This document shows, one piece after another, positions 47,780 to 64,000 of a stretch of 64,000 nucleotides of DNA; the first letter of the stretch is position 1; each line of letters starts with the position of its first letter. Under the pieces are notes generated by a model. It had not been told where the DNA came from. It saw only the letters and a program-made list of their open reading frames with translations, and made no database searches. The position numbers and the translations under genes are program-made. The stretch is from positions 57,071 to 121,070 of the forward strand of contig JAUVLU010000001.1 in assembly GCA_030600585.1 (NCBI GenBank), in the 5' to 3' direction. Source of the DNA: Candidatus Cloacimonadota bacterium (GTDB taxonomy: Bacteria > Cloacimonadota > Cloacimonadia > Cloacimonadales > TCS61).

Positions 47780-50700
47780 TTACTTCATTAGTAGCATTTT
47801 TTTCTGATATTCTTTTGTGTTTGTAATGAGTTTGTAGAAGTAAACACCAGAAGATACTTGTTTACCATTTGCATCTTTTCCATTCCAGACTATTGAATGA
47901 TTACCTTTTTGAAAATGATTTTTTGTAAGTGACTTAATGTGTTGACCTTTGATGTTATAAATTATAATTTCAATTTCATTTTCTTCAAGAATAGAAAAAG
48001 ATATTGTAGTAGTCGGATTAAACGGATTTGGATGATTACTTAGAAGAAATTTAGTTGAAACAATTTCATTATCATCAATTCCGTCTCTTGTTCCTCCACC
48101 AGTATTAATAATACTAATATCATCGAATGCAAATCCATCCCTATCGAGATATCCGCTAATCGGATAGTTATCGTACTGCTGAAATTTAATGACGAAATGA
48201 GATGATAAATTCAAATTGTAGGTTGAAGCTAAATCTGTGATATTTAATTCAATTTCTTGCCATGTTGTTGAGCCTTCACACAATGAATGAACTTTTGTGA
48301 AATTTGCACCAGCATCATCTGAGAAATAGACTCCATCGGTTGAGTGAGTTTCATCGTTGAATTCTTTCCACCAGAATGACATTTCCGGTGAATTATATTG
48401 AGAAAGGTTAAGATGGAGCATAGCCGAGTTTGTAACAAATTGCATTGCTGTACTGGAATCCATTGTTAAATGACCACGGCCTTCATAAGGTAAAAACTCA
48501 CTTGTACAGTGAATCCTGCCATAACTATTGCTAGATTCTGTTGTCCAATATTCATCTAAGCTACTATTGAAATCAATGGCATACGGCAAATTATCATAAT
48601 AAACCGAATAAACAGATATATCATCAAAAGCAAATCCATCATTTGTAATTGAGCAATTATCATATTGTTGAAATTTTATCACAAAGTTACTTGTGTAGTC
48701 TAAACTATAATATGTACTTAATGTATCGACATCAAGTGTGATCTCTTGCCAGGTTGACGATCCTTCGGTCAAGGAGTAGACTTTTGTGAAGTTTGTACCA
48801 CCATCATCTGAAAAGTAAACACCATCAATAGCGTGAGTTTCATCGTTGAATTCTTTCCACCAGAAATTTAGTTCAACTCGATCCTCATCAGTTAAATCTA
48901 AATGCAACCAAGCTTCATTTGTTACGTATATACCTGTTGTATCACAATCCATGATCAGATGCTTACATCCACCATGAGGTGAATATTGATCTGTGACTAA
49001 AGTTCTACCATAATTATTACTGGAGTGCATTTCCCAATTATAATCAATACCGTTTTCGAAAGTCATTGAATAGGGTAATCCTGTATAATCTTTTAGCTCA
49101 GAGTAAGTGTTTCTTGCCTGAATGAAATTGGGCGCATTTGATGTAATTACCGAAGTGGATTCGATCCTGCCGCTATAAGTATATGGTGATGCACCTTTTC
49201 CCATGATTGTACCTGAAGAACTTGTAACTACAATTTCTGCATCTACCTCAACACCGGAAGAATTTAAGGATGTAAATGTATATCCAAGTTGAATACTACC
49301 ATGAGCTAATATCGTTACAAGTTGCTCAGCTTCAGCGGACCAAACATCCATACTGGGATCACCAAAAAGTGTGTAACCAAAATACAATTCTCGCAGGACT
49401 CTGGAAGTATCTAACCAATTAGATACTCTATCCCAGCTTTCTCTCGTAAGATAACCAAGCTTACTAAAACCATTATCAAATTGCAGATCAAAGTATTCTT
49501 CTACTATTCTATTACTGAAATATGGATAATCTAATGTGGAAGATGTATTGATGGCTATAGGACCACCAAGCTCATTAAAAAAAACTTCCGAGATGCAATT
49601 CTCATCATTATATACTGTGTCTGGTATTGAATTAGCCCAGTACGGATATCGTTCACCAGAAATATCATAATTCATAACTATAGTATCTCCTATACCTCTT
49701 TGAACTGGAATCGTAGAACTCCACCGCTCAGTCTCTAAGTTACCTGAATGACATGCACCAATCCATGCGACATAGGAGGGTCCTAAACTAGTATATAACT
49801 CATCCTCGAGCTGATAATAATTTTCTGCAGGTCTACTATAATAATATTTATATTGATTTATATGTGGTCCCGACAGGATTTTATCCGAATACCAACATCT
49901 TCCTTCATCCACTGCAATATTGATTATGGTAATACATTGATTATGATTATCAAAATTATTCTCAAACCATTCGTTATTCCTATCATATTCCGAATCAAAA
50001 ATAGCATACTGTGATGCACCCGCATGCCACATTCCATAAAGGAAACTGTAATCACGATCATAAAACATATCAAGGATCGGTTGACCACAACCATTAACCT
50101 CATCTACCAAATCGTAATTATAAAGGACATCGGTTTCAATATTTGCATCAAGATTATCCATTATCTGATCGATACAATAATTATCTGCCATTGCTCCTGG
50201 ATATTTTTGGACATTTGTAGCAATAAAAGCCATTCTATCTGTATTCTCAGTACAGTTTGTTCGATAATTCTTATACTTGTTATAGAATTTAAAAATCTCA
50301 TATGCATTCCTGACCGGTACTCTGCCAACATAAAGATCAGGTTCTAATTCAATTTCCATAATGTCATTATCTGCAGGCCAGGTGGAAAGAACATTACTGT
50401 AATAAAAATCTGTAGTTGCAGGATAACTTTCACCGTTTTCAATATATTCAAAGCTCCAAATAGGAACTATATTCTCGTCACCACCGATCAGAACGTAAGT
50501 TAATGCCGGAAAATATAATTTTTGGATTGTTAACCAATTACGGATTTGGGAAGCAGTTAAACCTGTAGTAGTAGTTGATACAATTTTGGTTACGATACCT
50601 TCTTCATTTTTGAGTTGGGCAAAATTTTCAAAATCGTCCACAAATTCTTCACTTGTTATGATCACCATCTCCGTATCTAAGTTGCGATTTGGAAGCGGTT

Positions 50701-50911
50701 CTTCACTTACAATCGGTTTTCTTATTTTCATATCTTCTAAAAATTGTTCCACTATTTTCTCATCATTAAAAACTTTCATCAATTCTTTTTTCTCCACTTC
50801 TTCATAACTATCATAATTTATTGCCATAATCAGGTTTGCCACTAACATACAAACCAGTAATATCAATATCTTTTTTCCCGATATATCGGGATTAATCATA
50901 GATTTAAACAT
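47780..50911 (-). CDS. C25 gingipain-like cysteine peptidase with two tandem beta-sandwich repeats and C-terminal sorting domain
   Basis: VLIGGD, TDFYYS, DLYVGRVP, WHAG (His), GACHSG (Cys), LFGDPSM; repeat FWWKEFNDETH..DGVYFSDD.G.NFTKV twice; CTD NHPNPFNPTTTI...KMLLMK. Confidence 0.85.
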   Translation of the reverse strand: MFKSMINPDISGKKILILLVCMLVANLIMAINYDSYEEVEKKELMKVFNDEKIVEQFLEDMKIRKPIVSEEPLPNRNLDTEMVIITSEEFVDDFENFAQLKNEEGIVTKIVSTTTTGLTASQIRNWLTIQKLYFPALTYVLIGGDENIVPIWSFEYIENGESYPATTDFYYSNVLSTWPADNDIMEIELEPDLYVGRVPVRNAYEIFKFYNKYKNYRTNCTENTDRMAFIATNVQKYPGAMADNYCIDQIMDNLDANIETDVLYNYDLVDEVNGCGQPILDMFYDRDYSFLYGMWHAGASQYAIFDSEYDRNNEWFENNFDNHNQCITIINIAVDEGRCWYSDKILSGPHINQYKYYYSRPAENYYQLEDELYTSLGPSYVAWIGACHSGNLETERWSSTIPVQRGIGDTIVMNYDISGERYPYWANSIPDTVYNDENCISEVFFNELGGPIAINTSSTLDYPYFSNRIVEEYFDLQFDNGFSKLGYLTRESWDRVSNWLDTSRVLRELYFGYTLFGDPSMDVWSAEAEQLVTILAHGSIQLGYTFTSLNSSGVEVDAEIVVTSSSGTIMGKGASPYTYSGRIESTSVITSNAPNFIQARNTYSELKDYTGLPYSMTFENGIDYNWEMHSSNNYGRTLVTDQYSPHGGCKHLIMDCDTTGIYVTNEAWLHLDLTDEDRVELNFWWKEFNDETHAIDGVYFSDDGGTNFTKVYSLTEGSSTWQEITLDVDTLSTYYSLDYTSNFVIKFQQYDNCSITNDGFAFDDISVYSVYYDNLPYAIDFNSSLDEYWTTESSNSYGRIHCTSEFLPYEGRGHLTMDSSTAMQFVTNSAMLHLNLSQYNSPEMSFWWKEFNDETHSTDGVYFSDDAGANFTKVHSLCEGSTTWQEIELNITDLASTYNLNLSSHFVIKFQQYDNYPISGYLDRDGFAFDDISIINTGGGTRDGIDDNEIVSTKFLLSNHPNPFNPTTTISFSILEENEIEIIIYNIKGQHIKSLTKNHFQKGNHSIVWNGKDANGKQVSSGVYFYKLITNTKEYQKKMLLMK

Positions 50912-51235: not shown

Positions 51236-51308
51236 AGCGGAAGGTGGGAAGAAGCCAGGGTGCAAGCGGCGGTCAACCAACGTGCCTTTAGCCAAATCCC
51301 TTTCCGCT
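51236..51308. other. GC-rich long imperfect hairpin overlapping a stop codon
   Basis: agcggaa...ttccgct outer stem with ggga/tccc and gca/tgc inner pairings. Confidence 0.6.
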
Positions 51309-52947
51309 ATTTTATCATTAACATTTTTCGTGATTGCACTGTCTCTCCCCCATTTACTAATCTATAGAAATATACACCGCTACTAATAGATTTATCATTA
51401 GCATCCTTTCCATTCCAGATTATAGAATTTTCTCCGATTATATCTTCAAGTTGATAGCTTTTCACCTTTTGCCCTTTTACATTGTATATTTCTATTTGGG
51501 GATCAATAATGTCATCTGCCAAAGAATAAGATATGGTTGTGGATGGATTGAAGGGATTAGGGTGATTTTGTTTAAGAGAAGACATTATGCTTGGACCAAG
51601 ACTGATATTTCCAGTTGAGGAGATAAGAAGAATTTCACTATTATTTGATTCATTCCATTCATCCCAATTTTGTTCAGCAAGAAAATCATCACCATTCCCA
51701 GAATCCAATATGATTTCAATTGTTACTTCTTCATTCAACCAGGTAAAAGTAACATTATCTTCTCTATCCATTGTACTAACAAATACATCTCCATCAAGTA
51801 TCCCATTATATTGATGAGTTGCCAATTCAACATCATTTTTTTTTATGCTTACCTGGAAATTATCAAGAATCATTATATTGCTATCATTTGTAAAAGAGTA
51901 AAATATATATACGGTTTCACCGTATTCAAAATCGGAGTATTGATGAGGGTACAGTTCGTTCGGATTATCTGTTACTATGATAGATGCCCCAATTTGCATA
52001 TATTCATTCCAACATAGATCTGGTTCTTCAATAAAAGTATAAAACATATCAAAAAACTCAGCTCTTTGGTAATAAGTTGGATACCAACCATTATATTGAC
52101 TATCATGACGATCGGAGCTATGCGTACTAAAATTAGGACCGTCAGCAGTACAAATTACTGCATGTTCGTCTGGATCTGATTCCGATCCCAGAATCATAAC
52201 ATCACCTGGTGAAAAGTTATAAGGAACGGTCTGGGCTGTACGCCATTTATATTGATCAATTTCATAACCCCAGCGAACCTCAGTTTCATCTGAATCAAAT
52301 TCAAAATACACAGCATTTCCACTAAATGGTTCTTCATCCCACCAATTAGATGGGAAATTCTCACCTGAATAATAATAAGTGGTCTCATCATCTGTGGCAT
52401 ATAAGAAATCATAACCTGCTTCAATTTCCAAATCGGTGAAATGTAAACAAATTTCATCAGCTTCTGGTGGTGCATAAAGATCAAACCAATACTCTTCGTT
52501 ATTATAATATGGATGATTTGTTGATTGGAATGTTGGAGATATAGTTTCCCAATTCCACCAAGAGGCAGTATATCCTTGAGACCATCCTTGATTTATAAAA
52601 TAACTTCTCATATTATCAGATAATATAAAGAAATTCATATAAGCTGAACTCGAACCAGTTAATTGATCCTCTGATATTGGCACTCCTCCGGCTTCCAGGC
52701 ATTGTGAAACAAAATGAGTGCAGTCGTTGCCATCTATGTAACCTGCATTTGTTGGATTTCCAGTAGGATCTTCGTGATTATAAATAAATTTTGAAATATT
52801 ATCCCATTGTATTCCTTCATTGGCACCAATGGATCTCCCCGCATATTTTTCGGCATATCTATCCATTTGGTCAACATTCAACCATGCCTGACAGGTTAAT
52901 GCATAACATACAATTAGACAGGAAATTAATACTTTAATAAGCTTCAT
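51307..52947 (-). CDS. Secreted amidase_6-like Cys-His protein with inserted CUB-like domain and C-terminal sorting domain
   Basis: GNDCTHFVSQCLEAGG; CUB-like STNHPYYNN...LHFTDLEIEAGYDFLY...FDSD; PGDV...EHAVI...HSSDR; E.NESNN; CTD. Confidence 0.75.
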   Translation of the reverse strand: MKLIKVLISCLIVCYALTCQAWLNVDQMDRYAEKYAGRSIGANEGIQWDNISKFIYNHEDPTGNPTNAGYIDGNDCTHFVSQCLEAGGVPISEDQLTGSSSAYMNFFILSDNMRSYFINQGWSQGYTASWWNWETISPTFQSTNHPYYNNEEYWFDLYAPPEADEICLHFTDLEIEAGYDFLYATDDETTYYYSGENFPSNWWDEEPFSGNAVYFEFDSDETEVRWGYEIDQYKWRTAQTVPYNFSPGDVMILGSESDPDEHAVICTADGPNFSTHSSDRHDSQYNGWYPTYYQRAEFFDMFYTFIEEPDLCWNEYMQIGASIIVTDNPNELYPHQYSDFEYGETVYIFYSFTNDSNIMILDNFQVSIKKNDVELATHQYNGILDGDVFVSTMDREDNVTFTWLNEEVTIEIILDSGNGDDFLAEQNWDEWNESNNSEILLISSTGNISLGPSIMSSLKQNHPNPFNPSTTISYSLADDIIDPQIEIYNVKGQKVKSYQLEDIIGENSIIWNGKDANDKSISSGVYFYRLVNGGETVQSRKMLMIK

Positions 52948-56750: not shown

Positions 56751-57722
56751 ATGAAAAAAAATGATCGTATTTATACAGATATAATTAATTCAGCCTTTCA
56801 TTATTCTAAAATGATTTTAAAGAATGATGATGAAGCCAGAGATATATCTCAAGCTGTAGCTATAGAATATTTTATGAATATTAACAAATGTAATATCAAT
56901 AATTTGAATGGTTGGATATTTATAATAACTAGAAATAAATGTTACAACTATATCAAGAAAAATAAAAGAAATATTATTTCCGGTTCAATTGAATTTAATG
57001 AAAAGACATATGTTGAGCCTAATTTTGAAGAGAACAATTGCAACAATGATGATATGACCGAGATGATCAAAGCACTTCCATCAGATGTATTAAAGGTAAA
57101 AGAAAAGATGATGTTAATAAAATATTATAACAATAACTGTGAATATAAAAAATTATGTGCAAGATATTCAATTAAAATCGATTCAATGAGAAAGAAAATA
57201 TATCGATTAAAAAATGAAGTAATTGCATATAATAAAAGAAAGAATGGATACAATAATACAATAAAAATTGTTGGACCACGTTTAAGAGAAAATATTATGA
57301 ATTTTGTACGAAAATTTAATAATTGTTGCAGAAATGATGATTTTTCAAATATGCAGCAATACTTAATTGAATGTATAATGCCTTCTAAAATTCCAAGTAT
57401 TTGTATAAAAAAAATTATTCATATTAACATTGAATATATAGAAGTTAAAAAGTATGATCTTTGTATAATCTACTATGATAATTTCGGGAAAGTAAATAGC
57501 TTTTCAACCATTTTCAAAATTTCAAAATCCAATATTATTCATATACTTGAATTTCCAAAGCTAAGTAAAAAAATATTTAAAGCGAATGTTAAAGCTTTAC
57601 CTAAAGAAGTATTGGGAAAAATCCTTCCGGATAAAAAAGGAAAATATCATTATACTTTTGATGAAATTATTGGAATGATAAAAGAACATACAGAATTAAC
57701 AACAGTAACGAATAGTTACTGA
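56751..57722 (+). CDS. ECF-type sigma-70 factor with C-terminal extension
   Basis: Region 2 DEARDISQ...NGWIFIITRNKCYN; region 4 YKKLC...SMRKKIYRLK; about 150-aa extension. Confidence 0.75.
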   Translation: MKKNDRIYTDIINSAFHYSKMILKNDDEARDISQAVAIEYFMNINKCNINNLNGWIFIITRNKCYNYIKKNKRNIISGSIEFNEKTYVEPNFEENNCNNDDMTEMIKALPSDVLKVKEKMMLIKYYNNNCEYKKLCARYSIKIDSMRKKIYRLKNEVIAYNKRKNGYNNTIKIVGPRLRENIMNFVRKFNNCCRNDDFSNMQQYLIECIMPSKIPSICIKKIIHINIEYIEVKKYDLCIIYYDNFGKVNSFSTIFKISKSNIIHILEFPKLSKKIFKANVKALPKEVLGKILPDKKGKYHYTFDEIIGMIKEHTELTTVTNSY

Positions 57723-57749: not shown

Positions 57750-57776
57750 AAAAAAGCGGGGAAATTGTTTCCCCGC
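57750..57776 (-). terminator. Intrinsic terminator between convergent genes
   Basis: aaaaaa gcggggaaa-ttg-tttccccgc. Confidence 0.8.
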
Positions 57777-57795: not shown

Positions 57796-59763
57796 TTACT
57801 TCATCAACAACATTTTCTTTGAAACTTCAGAAGAAACTGTCTTCATTTTAACAAAGTACATTCCGCTGGAAGTAGAATTGTCATTGTTGTCTTTTCCATT
57901 CCAGACAAAGTTTGTATTTTGCACAATTTCGTTATTCACAATTGTTTTAACAAGCTGTCCCTTTATGTTGAATATCTTAACCGATACAGGTTGCTGAATA
58001 TCATTCTCATTAATAGAAAGAGCAATATTAGCTGTCGGATTGAATGGATTTGGATAAACAGAGATAGAGTTAACAGCAATCACATTAACTGTGTTATCAT
58101 CAGAATCTGTTGGTCCCATTCCATTAGGACCGCCATAAGCACCCATATCATTTCTTGTTCCATCGATGTCGTTGTATATAGCATCAGGATTACCGGTATC
58201 TATACAAGGTGAACCTTCTTGCAGCCACCACGATGCAGTAAGTCCGTTATATCCTGTTCCATCTCCGGCAGTCGGTGCAACAAAGAGCGGGTCTGCATCG
58301 ATATTACCCTCACCTGCAAATCCACCTGTTACGCAACTATATGTAATTATCGGTGTACTTTGTATGAAATGGATCTCACCATTATCAATAATGATAGAGT
58401 TAGTTATTATTGGAACTGAATTTAAAAGGAACATCAGATATGATGTTGAATTAGTTGATAAATTATTCGCTATAGTATTGTTAGTTAAAATTGCATTAGA
58501 ATCATTTTTGAAACTGAATGCTCCCCACTGTCCTGTGTTATTTACAATAGCATTGTTTACTATCTCTATAGTAGATGCAGTACATCTTATACCACCTGCA
58601 CAGCCTGAACTTGTATTATTGGAAATAATGTTTTGTGAAATCAGAACATTATCAGATCCTACGATCTCAAATGCTGCGGCAAGTGAAGAACTATTATTAT
58701 CAAATATCTTACATCCGATAATATCAACTTTGGAATTACCTTCTACTTTAATTGCAGAAAGATTGGCGTTGGATATCTCGCAGTTAGCAAGAAGATTATC
58801 TTCTTGAGTATTAAAGAATCTTATACCATTCCATGAAGTTTCTGAATCGAAAATAATAGGTTCACTTCTTGTAGATGATGCATCTGCAATTAGAAGTCCG
58901 TTAACTGTGAATTGTACATCTGCAGCAAATTGTAATTCAACACCTTCGTTGATTATTAGTGCATCACCTTCAGCAATAACAATATCACCGGAAATTATAT
59001 AAGGGCTAAAATCTGATACCCAAGTACCGGAAAGATTTCCGCTGACTGAAGAGCCATCAGTAACCGTGATGTAATCCTCAATAGTAATTTCAGCGAATTC
59101 TCCATCAACCTCAATTTTAAGAGTTACATCAAATACTCCAGGCTCTGTATAGACATGGAAAGGATTTTCCTGAGTACTGTCAAAAATCCCATCACCATCA
59201 AAATCCCATTCCCAGGCATCAATTACTCCTGTTGGTGAACTTGACATACTTGTAAACTGTACACCGAGATTTAAAGGACCAATTTGTACATTAGATGCTA
59301 TACCAGCACTAAGCCCGAAATTTGCAATAGCATTATCAAGCGGACCTGAAATTCCACTAACGTTATTGTTACCATAATAAAGTTCATTTTCTGGTCCTAC
59401 CACTGCAAAAAATGGGACATATCCATTTCCCCAATCCCAATATATCGCTCCAAGACCTGACCAATTTGGATGTGTATGTGTTGCTCCCCAATCAGTTTCC
59501 GATAAGAAATACGCCTGTCCACCTATTTCATATTGTTCCCATAAAGATTGATAAGTCGGCGCCGCCGATATACAGCCACCTCAACCAGAACTTCCCCAAA
59601 AGAAAACAACTGCTTTTCCAGAAGCAGTTAATTCATAAATTGAATGATTCTCACCATTACTATCAATCCAACTGACATCATTTACAATGTCTCCAACCTG
59701 ATATTGTGCGAACACACTAACAGAAAGGATTACTAAAAAAAACACTACTAATATCTTTTTCAT
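57796..59763 (-). CDS. Predicted secreted selenoprotein, 655 aa: signal peptide, thioredoxin/peroxiredoxin-like domain with UxxC (Sec61), PKD, right-handed beta-helix, C-terminal sorting domain
   Basis: ORFs 59581-59763 and 57796-59403 share a frame separated only by TGA 59581-59583: YQVGDIVND.SW.D..G...SIYEL...GKAVVFFWGSSG-U-GGC-ISAAP...GYVPFFAVVGP; PKD WEWDFDGDG..DST.ENPFHVY..PG; CTD VYPNPFNP...KMLLMK. Confidence 0.85.
59551..59571 (-). promoter_or_regulatory. Candidate bacterial SECIS hairpin
   Basis: Minus strand ATA-TCGGC-GGC-GCCGA-CT-TAT; G-starting apical loop 17 nt after the UGA. Confidence 0.65.
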
Positions 59764-59855
59764 TTTTCTCTCCTTTTAAGAGTCGGCTTTCGGGTATCCG
59801 AAAAACGATCTCCATTTTTTATTTAATTAATATCTGTCCCATGAAGTGCGTAAGC

Positions 59856-60632
59856 CTATTTCATCAGGATCATTTTTTTTATTTCCGAAAATTTTGAGTT
59901 ATTCAATTTATAGAAATAGACACCTGAAGAAACCGGTTGATTGCTTTCATCGGTACCGTTCCAGATTATGGAGTAGCCGACTCCGTCGGCAAAAAGCGGC
60001 GAGGGACTCGCCGACTCCAAAATATCCAAAGTTTTTACTTTCTGCCCTTTAAGATTATAAATTTCGAGATTCACAAAATCGGAATTTTGTGGTACAGAGA
60101 AAGAAATCGTTGTTCCAGGACTGCGACCGGCTCCTGACGGCTTAAATGGATTCGGATAGTTTTGCATGAGTTTATTAGCGTAAACAATCTCATCATCCGC
60201 GCTTACATTATCAGCAGTATTAAATGTGAAATCTAAACTGATAGGTTCAATAAGATCACCTTCATCCAGAATTATACTAAATGGAAATCCACCGGTACTG
60301 GTAACTGTCACAAGGATATGGATCTCTTCAAATTCTCCTGGTGCAAGTGGTAACGGAACCGCCCAATTTGCCATGAAACACGCACCGGATGAATTACATA
60401 TACTCAAATTCCAGTCGTTGGGTACGTTCTCATCGGAATAAAACAGAGTATAGGTTTCAGTAGTAGAACCAATGTTTGTAATTGTGATCCATTCCGATTC
60501 ATAAACATAAGAACCATTTGTAGCAAATGAATCTCCAATGATATCCATGTCGAATGGGATATCAACTTCCAATTCTGCAAAGACAAGGCTTATACTCATT
60601 ACTAAAAATGTGAATAGGATTATTTTTTTCAT
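59856..60632 (-). CDS. Secreted Ig-like domain protein with C-terminal sorting domain carrying two palindromic in-frame inserts
   Basis: Signal peptide; ITNIG, WNLSICNSSGACF; CTD NYPNPFKP[SGAGRSP]GTTISF...[ESASPSPLFADGVG]YSIIWNG...KMILMK. Confidence 0.85.
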   Translation of the reverse strand: MKKIILFTFLVMSISLVFAELEVDIPFDMDIIGDSFATNGSYVYESEWITITNIGSTTETYTLFYSDENVPNDWNLSICNSSGACFMANWAVPLPLAPGEFEEIHILVTVTSTGGFPFSIILDEGDLIEPISLDFTFNTADNVSADDEIVYANKLMQNYPNPFKPSGAGRSPGTTISFSVPQNSDFVNLEIYNLKGQKVKTLDILESASPSPLFADGVGYSIIWNGTDESNQPVSSGVYFYKLNNSKFSEIKKMILMK

Positions 60633-61067: not shown

Positions 61068-62480
61068 TCAAAACGATGTTACAATATCGAGGCGAACTCC
61101 ATCAAATTCTGCCTGATTTTTACAAACACCATTACGACAAACTAAACCGCCCTTTTCTTTTCCAATAAAAATTCGAACATCGGTATTCCATAAAATAGAA
61201 GCTGCAAATTCACCACCAATCCAGAATTCTCCATCGTTGCCTTCATTTGATTCGCCGAGTTGATTTTCTACAGTTATGGAAGCTGAATAATTTCCAATAG
61301 AAACATCGGTTTGCAATCTTGGTTCGAAGTGAGAAATATTCTCAGCACCGTTATCTTCTTCTTTATATTGATATTCTACTTTTATCATAACTGGAATATT
61401 TTTCAACATAAAATCAAGGCTCACGGCAGGTGTAAGTTCCTGATACCAGTTGTTTCCACTTTCGGTATTGATCTGCTCGAGAGCACCGTATTCTGATTTT
61501 ATAGAAAGATTATCAAAATCGTGTTTGAATTCACAATAAAGGTCAGATTGACGAACCTTGAAATTACTGTTCCAGCCTTCTGCATAATTTAATACAAATT
61601 CATTTTCATAGTTTGGAAGGAAGCGGATCTCGCCCATAAGTCCTTCTTCATCTTTGCCCGGATCCCATCCGTGTTCAAGCTGCTGTCCGCTATGATTTGC
61701 CATAGGCAGATCGGTAATTTTCGTATCAAAATTCTCATATTTTTTATAAACGGTTAGAAGTGTAAATTTACCAAGATAAGCAGTAGCGTTGGAATATATC
61801 CCTGTTCCACTCACATTATTTTCATCATTGCTTTTTGCGTACTCGGCATTGAGATCAAGCATATCATTGAAATAGTTCACTCTTCCTGTAAAAATATCAC
61901 ATTGATTATCTTCAAATTGCTGCTGCATTATATAACCACCACCAATTCTGAGATTATCTTTCAGGTTAAGATCAGCATCGACAGCAGCGATTTTGTCATT
62001 CTCATTTTCATCATCTACGTTTTTCATCAGTCCGTAAAAAATTTGAGCCTGCACTTTATCGAAGAAAGCTTGTGCATATCCGCCGGTGAGCCGAGAATCA
62101 TCCTCAAAATCGGTATCAAAATAATTATGCATTACCATTCCGCTGCCGATAACAGCATCGTAAGTTCCTGCTTTAAGGAAGAAATGATCAGATTCAAATT
62201 GCAGGAAATATTCATCGAAATAATTCTCATCTTCTTCAATACCTGTTTGCTCTGCGCTAAGGAAACGATCATATTTTGGTTTGTAATAATTGTATTTTAC
62301 ACCGGCAGACAGGTTATTATAAAATATTTGAAGTTGGAGTTTATCGGAGAAATAGTTTTGATATTCTTCACCAATATCACGTGTAATAGTTTGGAATTCA
62401 TTTAATATTGAGTAAGATATTTCTGCAAAAGCTGATGCAATAACCAGAAGAAAGAAAGCTGTTAATAATAATTTTTTCAT
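61068..62480 (-). CDS. DUF6029-like outer-membrane beta-barrel with C-terminal Cys pair
   Basis: Signal peptide, KAGTYDAVIGSGM, DEEGLMGE, GKEKGGLVCRNGVC...F.GVRLDIVTSF (terminal Phe). Confidence 0.75.
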   Translation of the reverse strand: MKKLLLTAFFLLVIASAFAEISYSILNEFQTITRDIGEEYQNYFSDKLQLQIFYNNLSAGVKYNYYKPKYDRFLSAEQTGIEEDENYFDEYFLQFESDHFFLKAGTYDAVIGSGMVMHNYFDTDFEDDSRLTGGYAQAFFDKVQAQIFYGLMKNVDDENENDKIAAVDADLNLKDNLRIGGGYIMQQQFEDNQCDIFTGRVNYFNDMLDLNAEYAKSNDENNVSGTGIYSNATAYLGKFTLLTVYKKYENFDTKITDLPMANHSGQQLEHGWDPGKDEEGLMGEIRFLPNYENEFVLNYAEGWNSNFKVRQSDLYCEFKHDFDNLSIKSEYGALEQINTESGNNWYQELTPAVSLDFMLKNIPVMIKVEYQYKEEDNGAENISHFEPRLQTDVSIGNYSASITVENQLGESNEGNDGEFWIGGEFAASILWNTDVRIFIGKEKGGLVCRNGVCKNQAEFDGVRLDIVTSF

Positions 62481-62488
62481 ATCTATCC

Positions 62489-62998
62489 TTACTCTTCGCT
62501 TTCTTCATTTTCTTCAGAAAATGTTTCCAACCATTTTATTATTATTTCTTTATAATGTTCTTCATCACCGCGTTTGTAACCGGTGTGATCATAAAGTATC
62601 TCGCCGTCCGGTGCGATTATTAAAGTGCGTGGGATATTCACGATATTGAATTGCTTTTGCACAACTTTTTTAGAATCAAAGAGAGTATGGAATTCATATT
62701 TATGTGATTTCACTTCAGCTATTGCTTTCCGTTTGGTTCTTGGTTTATCGGTGCAGATGGTTACAACATTCACATTTTCATATTCTTTATGTAATTCATC
62801 AAGTTTTGGCAATGCCTTTTTACATGGAACACACCAGCTTGCCCAAAAATCTAAAATTACAAGTCCTTCCTGCTGAAAATCAGAAAGCTTAACCATCTTG
62901 CCTTTCATATTTTCCAATTGGAAATCTTGTACTTTTTCTGCTGCAAAAAGTGATGCAGCAAACAGCACAATTAGTATTAAAGAAAAAAATCTGTTCAT
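62489..62998 (-). CDS. TlpA/ResA-like periplasmic thiol-disulfide oxidoreductase
   Basis: Signal peptide, DFQL, LDFWASWCVPC, cis-Pro NIPRT. Confidence 0.92.
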   Translation of the reverse strand: MNRFFSLILIVLFAASLFAAEKVQDFQLENMKGKMVKLSDFQQEGLVILDFWASWCVPCKKALPKLDELHKEYENVNVVTICTDKPRTKRKAIAEVKSHKYEFHTLFDSKKVVQKQFNIVNIPRTLIIAPDGEILYDHTGYKRGDEEHYKEIIIKWLETFSEENEESEE

Positions 62999-63011: not shown

Positions 63012-64000
63012 TTATCTTATAATATTTATTTCAATTACATTATATATTGTACAAGTATCGCCATTATAATGATCTTCTAAAGTTTGTATCCAGAGAACGA
63101 GAATCAAGTCATCAGGAAGCTGCTGATAACCCGATGCAAGTTGATCAAGACCGGAAATAGTGAACGTAACAAGTTCTTGCCGATTTAATGAAGATATATC
63201 AACGGTTTCACGCTTGAGTTCAATATTATGAAGATTTTCTCCGCTGTGATTTTGATGTTCCGTACTTAATTCTTCCATTAACACAGCCACAAGTTTTAAG
63301 TTATTTGTAGAAATTGATCCATCCAGTTCGATCTGCACGGAACCATTTAAAGTAGTACCGTTAATATCGGCTTGTGCATCTAAAAACTTAGCCGTTAACG
63401 GCTGTTCCATTAGTGGAACTATAACATCTTCAATATCCTGCTGGATAGTTACGGAAGAACCTGTGATAATTTCAGCATTACCATTTATTACAGTATAAGG
63501 CAGGTAACCATGATTTTCATAATATATAAGCAAAGGTGTGTTCCCGGGGTCTAAAATATCATTAATATGATATTCTACATAAGAGAATCTACTGCCGTAT
63601 TCTTCTTTAAGATTGTGAAGAGCTTCTTCAACGATCGGGCAGTTTACACAGGACATTGCTGTAAACATTTCGACCACTACATTACGCATATTAGCCTGAT
63701 TTCCATAAAACATATAGGAATTATCAGTTTCGATTAAAACATCAGATATGATAGTATCCATAAATGTTGTTTCTGAATCCGGGCTTGTAACCAGCAATCG
63801 CCAATCTATTGCAAAAGCATTTGTATCAATTATTACAGCTTCAAATGTTAAAGGCATATTTACATAAGAAAAAGCTTTATAAAAGTTTTCAACATCAGAT
63901 TTAATTAAGCCGTTGTTACTGTAATTATCGTGAAAGAATTCCATTATGTTAGTAACATCTTCTTTTGGCAGAATGGTTTCAATGGAATCTGCAAAAGTAT
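63012..64000 (-). CDS. Omp28-related thioredoxin-fold protein with an N-terminal NTF2-like segment; starts beyond the right edge
   Basis: RNVVVEMFTAMSCVNCP, VEYH, LPYTVING, LKLVAVLME, ILVLWIQ; frame open from 63944 to the window end. Confidence 0.8.
   Translation of the reverse strand, partial: TFADSIETILPKEDVTNIMEFFHDNYSNNGLIKSDVENFYKAFSYVNMPLTFEAVIIDTNAFAIDWRLLVTSPDSETTFMDTIISDVLIETDNSYMFYGNQANMRNVVVEMFTAMSCVNCPIVEEALHNLKEEYGSRFSYVEYHINDILDPGNTPLLIYYENHGYLPYTVINGNAEIITGSSVTIQQDIEDVIVPLMEQPLTAKFLDAQADINGTTLNGSVQIELDGSISTNNLKLVAVLMEELSTEHQNHSGENLHNIELKRETVDISSLNRQELVTFTISGLDQLASGYQQLPDDLILVLWIQTLEDHYNGDTCTIYNVIEINIIR

Follow-up and report, generated by a model that had tools for sequence, protein, structure and literature searches.

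HBP35 of Porphyromonas gingivalis, as described in the sections of PMC2907840 drawn on here, is located at the cell surface and attached to anionic polysaccharide; its recombinant form reduces insulin disulfides, and mutation of its two cysteines abolishes this activity. PMC11285876, in the portion used, gives 5Y1A as its structure and allows for a type IX secretion system (T9SS) in Cloacimonadota. For selenocysteine (Sec, U), the consulted part of PMC13188914 lists predicted outer-membrane or extracytoplasmic selenoproteins, namely an FCYXU-type TonB-dependent receptor, the GSU2204 MtrB/PioB-like barrel, the ExtKL cytochrome and an Omp28-related protein, and a Cloacimonetes type of the selenocysteine tRNA (tRNA-Sec) is on record in the part of PMC5330540 cited. 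Here we analyzed a 64,000-nt stretch of a Candidatus Cloacimonadota genome (‘the window’; GenBank assembly GCA_030600585.1, contig JAUVLU010000001.1, positions 57,071 to 121,070), whose minus strand carries a 655-codon gene with one in-frame TGA. Judged from comparison with homologous loci, this is one intact selenoprotein gene, mis-annotated as two open reading frames (ORFs), and it belongs to a real family. The product is probably a selenocysteine redox protein exported to the Cloacimonadota cell surface, and we consider it likely that the whole reading holds, namely a Sec-decoded, T9SS-exported surface selenoprotein of the TlpA/ResA type.

From position 59763 to 57796 on the minus strand, the gene forms a single frame with a lone TGA at codon 61. 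Translation with TGA as U gave 655 residues with zero other stops, and only U61 differed from the translation under table 11. The initial annotation of the window had described a 60-aa ORF that stops at the TGA between FFWGSSG and GGC, a frame that stays open for 59 further codons and joins a 535-aa ORF lacking a signal peptide of its own, and a gene that standard annotation would split; these four points were borne out. The 60-aa ORF (59763..59581) ends at the TGA (59583..59581) in the context FFWGSSG-U-GGC-ISAAP, and 59 open codons lead from there to the GTG at 59403, where the 535-aa ORF (57796..59403) starts in the same frame. By inspection, the N-terminus of the latter (MVGPENELYYGNN) is without a hydrophobic start. 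The split does occur in public gene calls, where one NCBI protein begins 3' of the TGA, and stumps of 51-64 aa ending just 5' of it make up 14 of the best 150 library hits. Such a picture could also come from a pseudogene, an assembly error or two genes, one for a 60-aa peptide and one for a 535-aa protein with GTG 59403 as its start, given that table 11 yields exactly these two ORFs and that public gene calls list both separately.

The conservation of the TGA speaks strongly against that explanation. Genome searches were made with the N-terminal 133 residues as query and with stops read through. Among 43 matches listed from 61 related genomes, all 29 at E <= 2.1e-21 contained exactly one TGA; the remaining 14 weaker matches contained none and were mostly ordinary TlpA-like genes of 160-220 aa. 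At the fetched loci, the TGA occupied the same alignment column in 20 out of 20 cases. Named species genomes and metagenome-assembled genomes (MAGs) were scanned with two patterns; because one of these back-translates Cys and cannot match TGA, the 33 loci obtained must all have come through the other, GNGYVPFF, so the scan was not biased towards TGA, and the codon was present at the aligned site in 33/33. Across 232 Cloacimonadota genomes, one TGA was found in 62 of the 66 matches listed, and the family was matched at E <= 1e-10 in 55 of these genomes, representing 22 of 66 genera. According to record titles, the carriers are Candidatus Cloacimonadota, two Delongbacteria MAGs and one MAG labelled Armatimonadota. 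The conservation among homologues for which the initial annotation had proposed a check extends across genera and families, and the TGA persists while identity drops to about 35 %. Synonymous and amino-acid differences across the TGA likewise indicated a conserved frame, although their counts add little weight. Furthermore, the 59-codon segment that separates TGA and GTG contains the invariant residues W92, N113, G114, P117 and F119, and the 535-aa ORF carries a T9SS C-terminal sorting domain (CTD) yet no signal peptide of its own. Weaker is the evidence from contigs of four DNA runs, among which a 536-nt one from another study spans 59269..59800 with one letter different, its place not located. 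With the open frame kept in this way, we regard a broken or double gene as extremely improbable.

The MAG labelled Armatimonadota (locus L047) holds a 552-aa member that is sister to the one from L048, a MAG of the Cloacimonadota; both branches are very short (0.06 and 0.12). Its contig was probably mis-binned, or the gene was recently transferred.

A GC-rich hairpin with a G-starting loop had been placed 17 nt after the UGA, and this proved exact: the loop GGC (59563..59561) begins exactly 17 nt past it. The bacterial selenocysteine insertion sequence (SECIS) model, as given in the relevant part of PMC13188914, allows a loop of 3-9 nt with G first, a stem of 4-16 bp, a spacing of 16-37 nt and a minimum free energy of <= -7.5; the element has a GGC loop, a 5-bp stem, the 17-nt spacing and -10.1 kcal/mol over 44 nt. 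Eleven nucleotides 3' of the UGA (CGGCGGCGCCG) are nearly invariant and encode A-A-P, and this hairpin core occurs once in the 2.58-Mb genome when both strands are counted. Codon choice is frozen at these positions. A67 and A68 are GCG in all 34 aligned rows, and P69 is CCG in 31 and CCT in 3; the three CCT rows are precisely those in which the opposite GCG has become GAG, which turns pair 29-39 from CG (31 rows) into AU (3 rows). GCG makes up 7.9 % of the Ala codons, with a genomic GC content of 34.4 %, and other conserved Gly, Pro, Ala, Val and Thr columns show free codon use (P117: CCA 12, CCT 13, CCC 4, CCG 5; A138: GCT 8, GCC 4, GCA 18, GCG 1). The next outward pair covaries (GC 12, GU 6, AU 2, UA 2, UG 1, unpaired 11), and the observed covariation score was reached by none of 500 column shuffles (0/500), a control that is generous to related sequences. 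The adjacent SECIS first proposed thus agrees with the published model and is marked by covariation and frozen synonymous sites. Comparison of the aligned loci shows that, in this Sec-decoding organism, the UGA is a conserved codon and the RNA hairpin behind it is under selection.

selD (G000:C15:7530, outside the window), a member of an established selenoprotein family, is itself a selenoprotein gene in this genome, with the context KAAG-U-AGK, and served as an internal control. Its UGA is likewise followed at 17 nt by a GGC loop closed by C-G, and GUCCG[GU]CGGAC occurs 3' of the selD UGA in 12 of the 17 selD-TGA loci of relatives. Taken together, these sequences make the C-GGC-G triloop a candidate for the motif that SelB recognises in this lineage. 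A de novo scan for more selenoproteins (TGA in CxxU, UxxC and CU contexts, plus fold) gave 116 noise-like candidates, the top one of which (C49:36428) had a low-quality translation and was dropped.

TGA is reassigned in some uncultured bacterial lineages, and the frame would be open under such codes. On this view, an altered genetic code or a suppressor tRNA would place a standard amino acid, Trp or Gly, at the TGA instead of selenocysteine. We find this scarcely credible here. There is a single TGA in 655 codons, and it aligns to the catalytic Cys of CxxC homologues. Conserved Trp columns are TGG in 31-34 rows each; because all Trp codons in the aligned conserved columns are TGG, TGA is not a Trp codon here. 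By a crude count, TGA terminates 211 of 1096 long ORFs. A matching hairpin is present in selD, and the genome encodes selB (339 bits against a cut-off of 242), selD (352 bits, over the cut-off, with one TGA) and a tRNA-Sec. The latter adjoins selB and scored 54.6 bits against a gathering score of 47; ARAGORN calls the same tRNA as tRNA-SeC with anticodon TCA.

Cysteine was found opposite the TGA in homologues, as had been anticipated. P0002, a JGI protein of 650 aa, has GCGGC at the aligned site, and CxxC occupies the site in 12 of 13 aligned database homologues, the other (P0007) having SxxS. Another homologue, P0006, has CxxS. A midpoint-rooted tree was built from 34 Sec rows and 15 Cys-type rows, the latter hand-picked from the 150 best library hits. 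All 34 Sec forms and five nested non-Sec forms grouped in one clade (support 100/99), with the other 10 of the 15 Cys forms outside it as outgroup. The simplest reading of this topology is one gain of Sec followed by several reversions.

P0006 (2260 aa) and P0007 (659 aa) lie inside the Sec clade and have retained the CTD. Their active-site sequences would make them monothiol and redox-dead derivatives, respectively. At another locus (L055:3001-4968), the passenger is 76 % identical to that of the window, and the Sec domain is of another subtype (FWGESW-U), with an amino-acid change in 37 of the 58 aligned codons between codons 62 and 120. The alignment suggests an exchange of Sec modules among passengers.

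Table 1. Features of the selenoprotein gene and its surroundings. Positions refer to the window unless a locus is named.
Feature	Position	Strand	Basis or remark
Whole selenoprotein gene	57796..59763	(-)	ATG 59763..59761, Sec codon 61, stop TAA 57798..57796; 655 residues
In-frame TGA, read as selenocysteine codon (residue 61)	59581..59583	(-)	TGA in 34/34 aligned rows
SECIS apical hairpin UCGGC-GGC-GCCGA (predicted)	59556..59568	(-)	Within codons for S/A-A-A-P
Signal peptide, residues 1-20 (MKKILVVFFLVILSVSVFAQ)	59704..59763	(-)	By eye; cleavage guessed after VFA
TlpA/ResA-like thioredoxin-fold domain, residues 21-135, active site U61-G-G-C64	59359..59703	(-)	Profile alignment, PDB profile hits, AlphaFold2 (AF2) model
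YVPF, residues 115-118; P117 predicted cis-Pro	59410..59421	(-)	P117 invariant 34/34; strand 118-122 next in model
PKD domain, residues ~160-234	59062..59286	(-)	Pfam PKD_4 39.5 bits vs cut-off 27
Right-handed beta-helix, residues ~240-470	58354..59046	(-)	Pfam Beta_helix 33.4 vs 25.9 bits, residues 289-410
T9SS type A C-terminal sorting domain, residues 569-655	57799..58059	(-)	Por_Secre_tail (PF18962) 36.3 vs 27 bits; TIGR04183 35.4 vs 23 bits
Shine-Dalgarno-like AGGAG	59770..59774	(-)	6 nt 5' of ATG, direct sequence reading
Intrinsic-terminator-like hairpin and T-run	57756..57776	(-)	20 nt 3' of stop; 9 pairs, 6 G-C; tail TTTTTTATTT
258-aa T9SS-CTD protein, upstream neighbour	59856..60632	(-)	Syntenic with Sec gene in orthologous loci
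DUF6029 protein, 470 aa, signal peptide, ends ...VTSF	61068..62480	(-)	Pfam DUF6029 62.3 bits
Cys-type TlpA/ResA-like thiol-disulfide oxidoreductase, 169 aa, WCVPC	62489..62998	(-)	AhpC-TSA 79.8 bits; ResA subfamily 1.1e-22, below cut-off
3' part of Omp28-like lipoprotein gene (~367 aa), SCVNCP; gene start past window end, directly after dsbD	63012..64000	(-)	Omp28 family 7e-9, Omp28-related selenoprotein 9e-5, both below cut-off
Full-length dsbD, 559 aa, all three DsbD parts	L072:928-2607, just past window end	(-)	DsbD model 178.7 bits, residues 65-536, cut-off 330 not reached

The reading of the N-terminal part as a UxxC thioredoxin fold with a cis-Pro-like YVPF motif (coordinates of all features in Table 1) gained support from profile homology. 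hhalign of a 34-sequence profile of the N-terminal domain against the neighbouring TlpA-like protein gave a probability of 96.1 % and E 3.3e-9 over 129 columns, in a register that aligns U to the leading Cys of WCVPC, and YVPFF to the IP(R/T) cis-Pro loop. A PDB profile search matched TlpA-like 3hcz, tryparedoxins and ResA, again with U opposite the leading Cys. For residues 1-138, the AF2 model (predicted local distance difference test, pLDDT, 87.3; predicted template modelling score, pTM, 0.78) has a beta-alpha-beta order in which U61 starts helix 62-78. This modelled order of elements would fit a thioredoxin fold with an N-terminal hairpin. The hydrophobic N-terminus with its n-h-c region is conserved in homologues and forms a helix (2-19) in the model.

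Behind this domain, Pfam, NCBIfam and the models agree with the order PKD, beta-helix and T9SS CTD that was initially proposed. The PKD domain matched that of the collagenase ColH at E 7e-13 and has pLDDT 82-92 in the full-length model, which shows short strands throughout 240-474 (pLDDT mostly 86-95) and is poor at 475-564. All ten of the diverse family members compared had a Por_Secre_tail match, which reached the cut-off in nine, and a ...KKMILMK-type tail ends 27 of the 28 complete homologues. The passengers of the ten members vary, and include Cleaved_Adhesin, CarboxypepD_reg, a proprotein-convertase P domain, MAM and fn3. The constant parts of the predicted family architecture would accordingly be the N-terminal Sec domain and the C-terminal CTD, with variable passengers in between. 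The T9SS machinery was searched for with SprA and PorU models. SprA was over its cut-off with 206.8 bits, or 505.5 together with neighbouring pieces, and the PorU model matched 51 frames genome-wide, 47 of them by its CTD part only. Matches of this kind indicate a large predicted T9SS cargo repertoire for a 2.6-Mb genome.

Two further proteins with a T9SS sorting domain are encoded on the minus strand of the window. One, at 47780-50911, is a gingipain-like Peptidase_C25 protein of 1043 aa, on which a surface disulfide reductase might act or with which it might cooperate; the other, at 51307-52947, is 546 aa long and has a putative amidase domain together with a weak match to CUB. On the other strand, a 323-aa protein (56751-57722) with Sigma-70 region 2 as sole match (24.2 bits) is convergent with the Sec gene, and the two have a common terminator region. 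Defence-system models gave no match.

The genes upstream of the Sec gene form a redox cluster with the one-strand order dsbD, Omp28-like CxxC lipoprotein, TlpA, DUF6029 protein, 258-aa cargo and Sec gene. This order was kept in five close loci (L039-L042 and L044). Fifteen more loci were fetched, and in three of them (L073, L086 and L087) the Sec gene again adjoins the cluster; L073 belongs to another family (f17). All cluster partners were Cys forms in the loci inspected. The DUF6029 protein had no PDB or NCBIfam match; its C-terminal F prompts the guess of an outer-membrane barrel. The conserved arrangement suggests that DsbD-derived electrons may reach the Sec domain.

Worded as a model, the preferred reading would proceed as follows. 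Insertion is a strongly supported step: SelB and Sec-tRNA(Sec) would bind the C-GGC-G triloop 17 nt past UGA-61 and selenocysteine would be inserted, and without insertion only a 60-residue stump would be made. Judging from the domains and the T9SS genes of the genome, the product would be exported by the Sec secretion pathway, fold in the periplasm and then pass the outer membrane through the T9SS, which would remove the CTD and leave the protein tethered or released. With this domain order, the selenol domain would form the end most distant from the cell. By homology, the U61 selenolate would attack an external disulfide or another oxidised sulfur species, and C64 would resolve the Se-S intermediate. 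The Se-S bond could then be re-reduced via the upstream-encoded DsbD/TlpA pathway or by sulfidic surroundings.

The cluster can be read differently, as the sign of redox work in the periplasm. The protein would then be a DsbD-fed reductase or isomerase that acts before or instead of export, e.g. on T9SS cargo, or its domain would be removed after secretion. The directly upstream dsbD/TlpA genes fit this, T9SS cargo generally folds in the periplasm, and HBP35 complements an E. coli dsbA mutant (PMC2907840, in the part used). We nevertheless hold a purely periplasmic role to be unlikely: the CTD is kept in 10/10 diverse members, the cluster already contains a separate periplasmic TlpA, and the Sec domain is always N-terminal on long stalk-like passengers (PKD, fn3, Cleaved_Adhesin, MAM), which fits display. 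That the Sec domain is a cis-acting foldase for its own passenger was rejected, as some members have 1-2 Cys in total.

Another alternative concerns the substrate. Instead of a protein disulfide, the UxxC site could act on polysulfide or elemental sulfur, a metal(loid) (Cu, Hg, As, Se) or peroxide in sulfidic sediment. The stretch comes from cold-seep and marine-sediment metagenomes, the protein has a weak match to the copper-binding beta-helix model NosD (21.7 against 23.6 bits), and the AhpC/TSA family includes peroxidases; many selenoproteins listed in Table 1 of PMC13188914, as far as its consulted part goes, handle metals. On the other side, UxxC with a cis-Pro loop is the arrangement of TlpA/ResA reductases and not the TxxU of peroxiredoxins, and a metal role specific to the beta-helix would not generalise to a family in which the Sec domain is constant and the passengers differ. 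We give this alternative a small probability.

A more far-reaching version of the display model is an envelope-spanning thiol/selenol relay, in which electrons would pass from cytoplasmic thioredoxin to DsbD, from there to the periplasmic TlpA-like protein, the Omp28-like lipoprotein or both, the DUF6029 protein being a conceivable outer-membrane partner, and finally to the T9SS-displayed selenol. We regard this as doubtful. If true, it would bring cytoplasmic reducing power to extracellular disulfides or oxidised sulfur in an anaerobe, and one use could be the opening of disulfide-bonded proteins for surface C25 and other peptidases. Selenium might then have been chosen because a surface selenol remains nucleophilic and is not irreversibly over-oxidised.

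Several observations weigh against the reading as a Sec-decoded, T9SS-exported surface protein. The TGA counts come from related genomes, which are non-independent samples, and therefore overstate replication. The folding energy of the hairpin is indistinguishable from that of shuffles (z -0.63, -0.59); because the folding energy alone is unremarkable, the significance of the TGA and its hairpin rests on comparison. Of the selA, selB, selC and selD genes expected by the initial annotation, selB, tRNA-Sec and selD stood over their cut-offs, and selA was present only as a 54-bit C-terminal fragment of ~100 residues at a contig start (C45:5-304), with its remainder missing from an assembly that is 96.8 % complete. 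This is likely a contig break: selA was full-length or near so in 13/13 other genomes of the genus, and the 25 genomes with the TGA form in the 61-genome search had a selA match in 24 cases, the exception being 61 % complete. The Pfam models AhpC-TSA (19.3 against 26 bits) and Redoxin (16.4 against 26.6) were below cut-off for the N-terminal domain, as they were, or were absent, in ten homologues, and none of the curated NCBIfam selenoprotein models fits this domain. The best PorU-like frame reached 385 bits, under the cut-off of 420. Members with 1-2 Cys in the entire protein have a passenger that needs no Sec domain. The remaining loci of the 15 comprised one with the cluster near a paralogue, one partial and ten without it. 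These ten hold paralogues with other passengers, and the link therefore belongs to the 640-655-aa PKD/beta-helix orthologues. No RNA run was listed among the runs containing the stretch, which are DNA metagenomes of cold seeps and marine sediments. Finally, we know of no electron path across the outer membrane.

The consequences of the preferred reading reach beyond this gene. Gene callers overlook a whole lineage-specific selenoprotein family, and databases hold its stumps and headless fragments. If true, a selenol catalyst would work outside the cell of strict anaerobes in sulfidic sediments, and selenium enzymes would extend to T9SS cargo. The invariant 11-nt hairpin, which is common with selD, would be a minimal natural SECIS for the phylum and could sharpen selenoprotein prediction, and the conserved dsbD/TlpA link hints at a recharging route for a surface redox enzyme.

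Compared with described systems, HBP35 is the most similar in architecture. As presented in the part of PMC2907840 used here, it starts with a signal peptide and a thioredoxin-type CxxC domain and ends in a T9SS CTD; it differs in having Cys instead of Sec, in its length of 344 residues, in haemin binding and in having no PKD or beta-helix. Its structure was not among the 14 PDB hits at E <= 0.001 of the Sec-domain profile, nor among the best 60 of 72 PDB hits of the Cys-type T9SS relative P0037. By analogy of architecture, HBP35 would thus be the closest working analogue and not a shown family member. Also comparable are Cys-type TlpA-like T9SS-CTD proteins (e.g. P0005, P0014, P0036, P0037, P0140), which likewise have a signal peptide, a TlpA-like domain, an immunoglobulin-like or other passenger and a CTD; their CxxC aligns with UxxC, and they matched the TIGR04183 and ResA models. 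Unlike the present family, they have Cys, mostly as WCGPC, and they are common in databases and uncharacterised.

Among selenoproteins, the TlpA-like UxxC entries in Table 1 of PMC13188914 share the fold class, the Sec-first UxxC and a predicted redox function, and one of them may belong to the present family. In its table descriptions, the 119-family inventory of that source mentions neither a Cloacimonadota family nor any fusion to T9SS, PKD or beta-helix parts. The initial annotation had held that most characterised selenoproteins are not surface cargo, with which the consulted table agrees while listing some outer-membrane ones. The latter are a precedent for Sec beyond the inner membrane; as described there, they have other folds and routes, and no T9SS cargo with a distal thioredoxin fold is among them. 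In a literature search that left supplements outside, selenoproteins or selenocysteine in Cloacimonadota appeared as tRNA-Sec only, and a selenoprotein as T9SS cargo was not found; the paper describing two of the carrier MAGs contains no mention of ‘selen’. Within the literature searched, these would be the first predicted T9SS-carried selenoproteins. TlpA-like UxxC selenoproteins and the Cys-type T9SS thioredoxin HBP35 were known already, and it is their apparent combination in one protein that is new within that literature.

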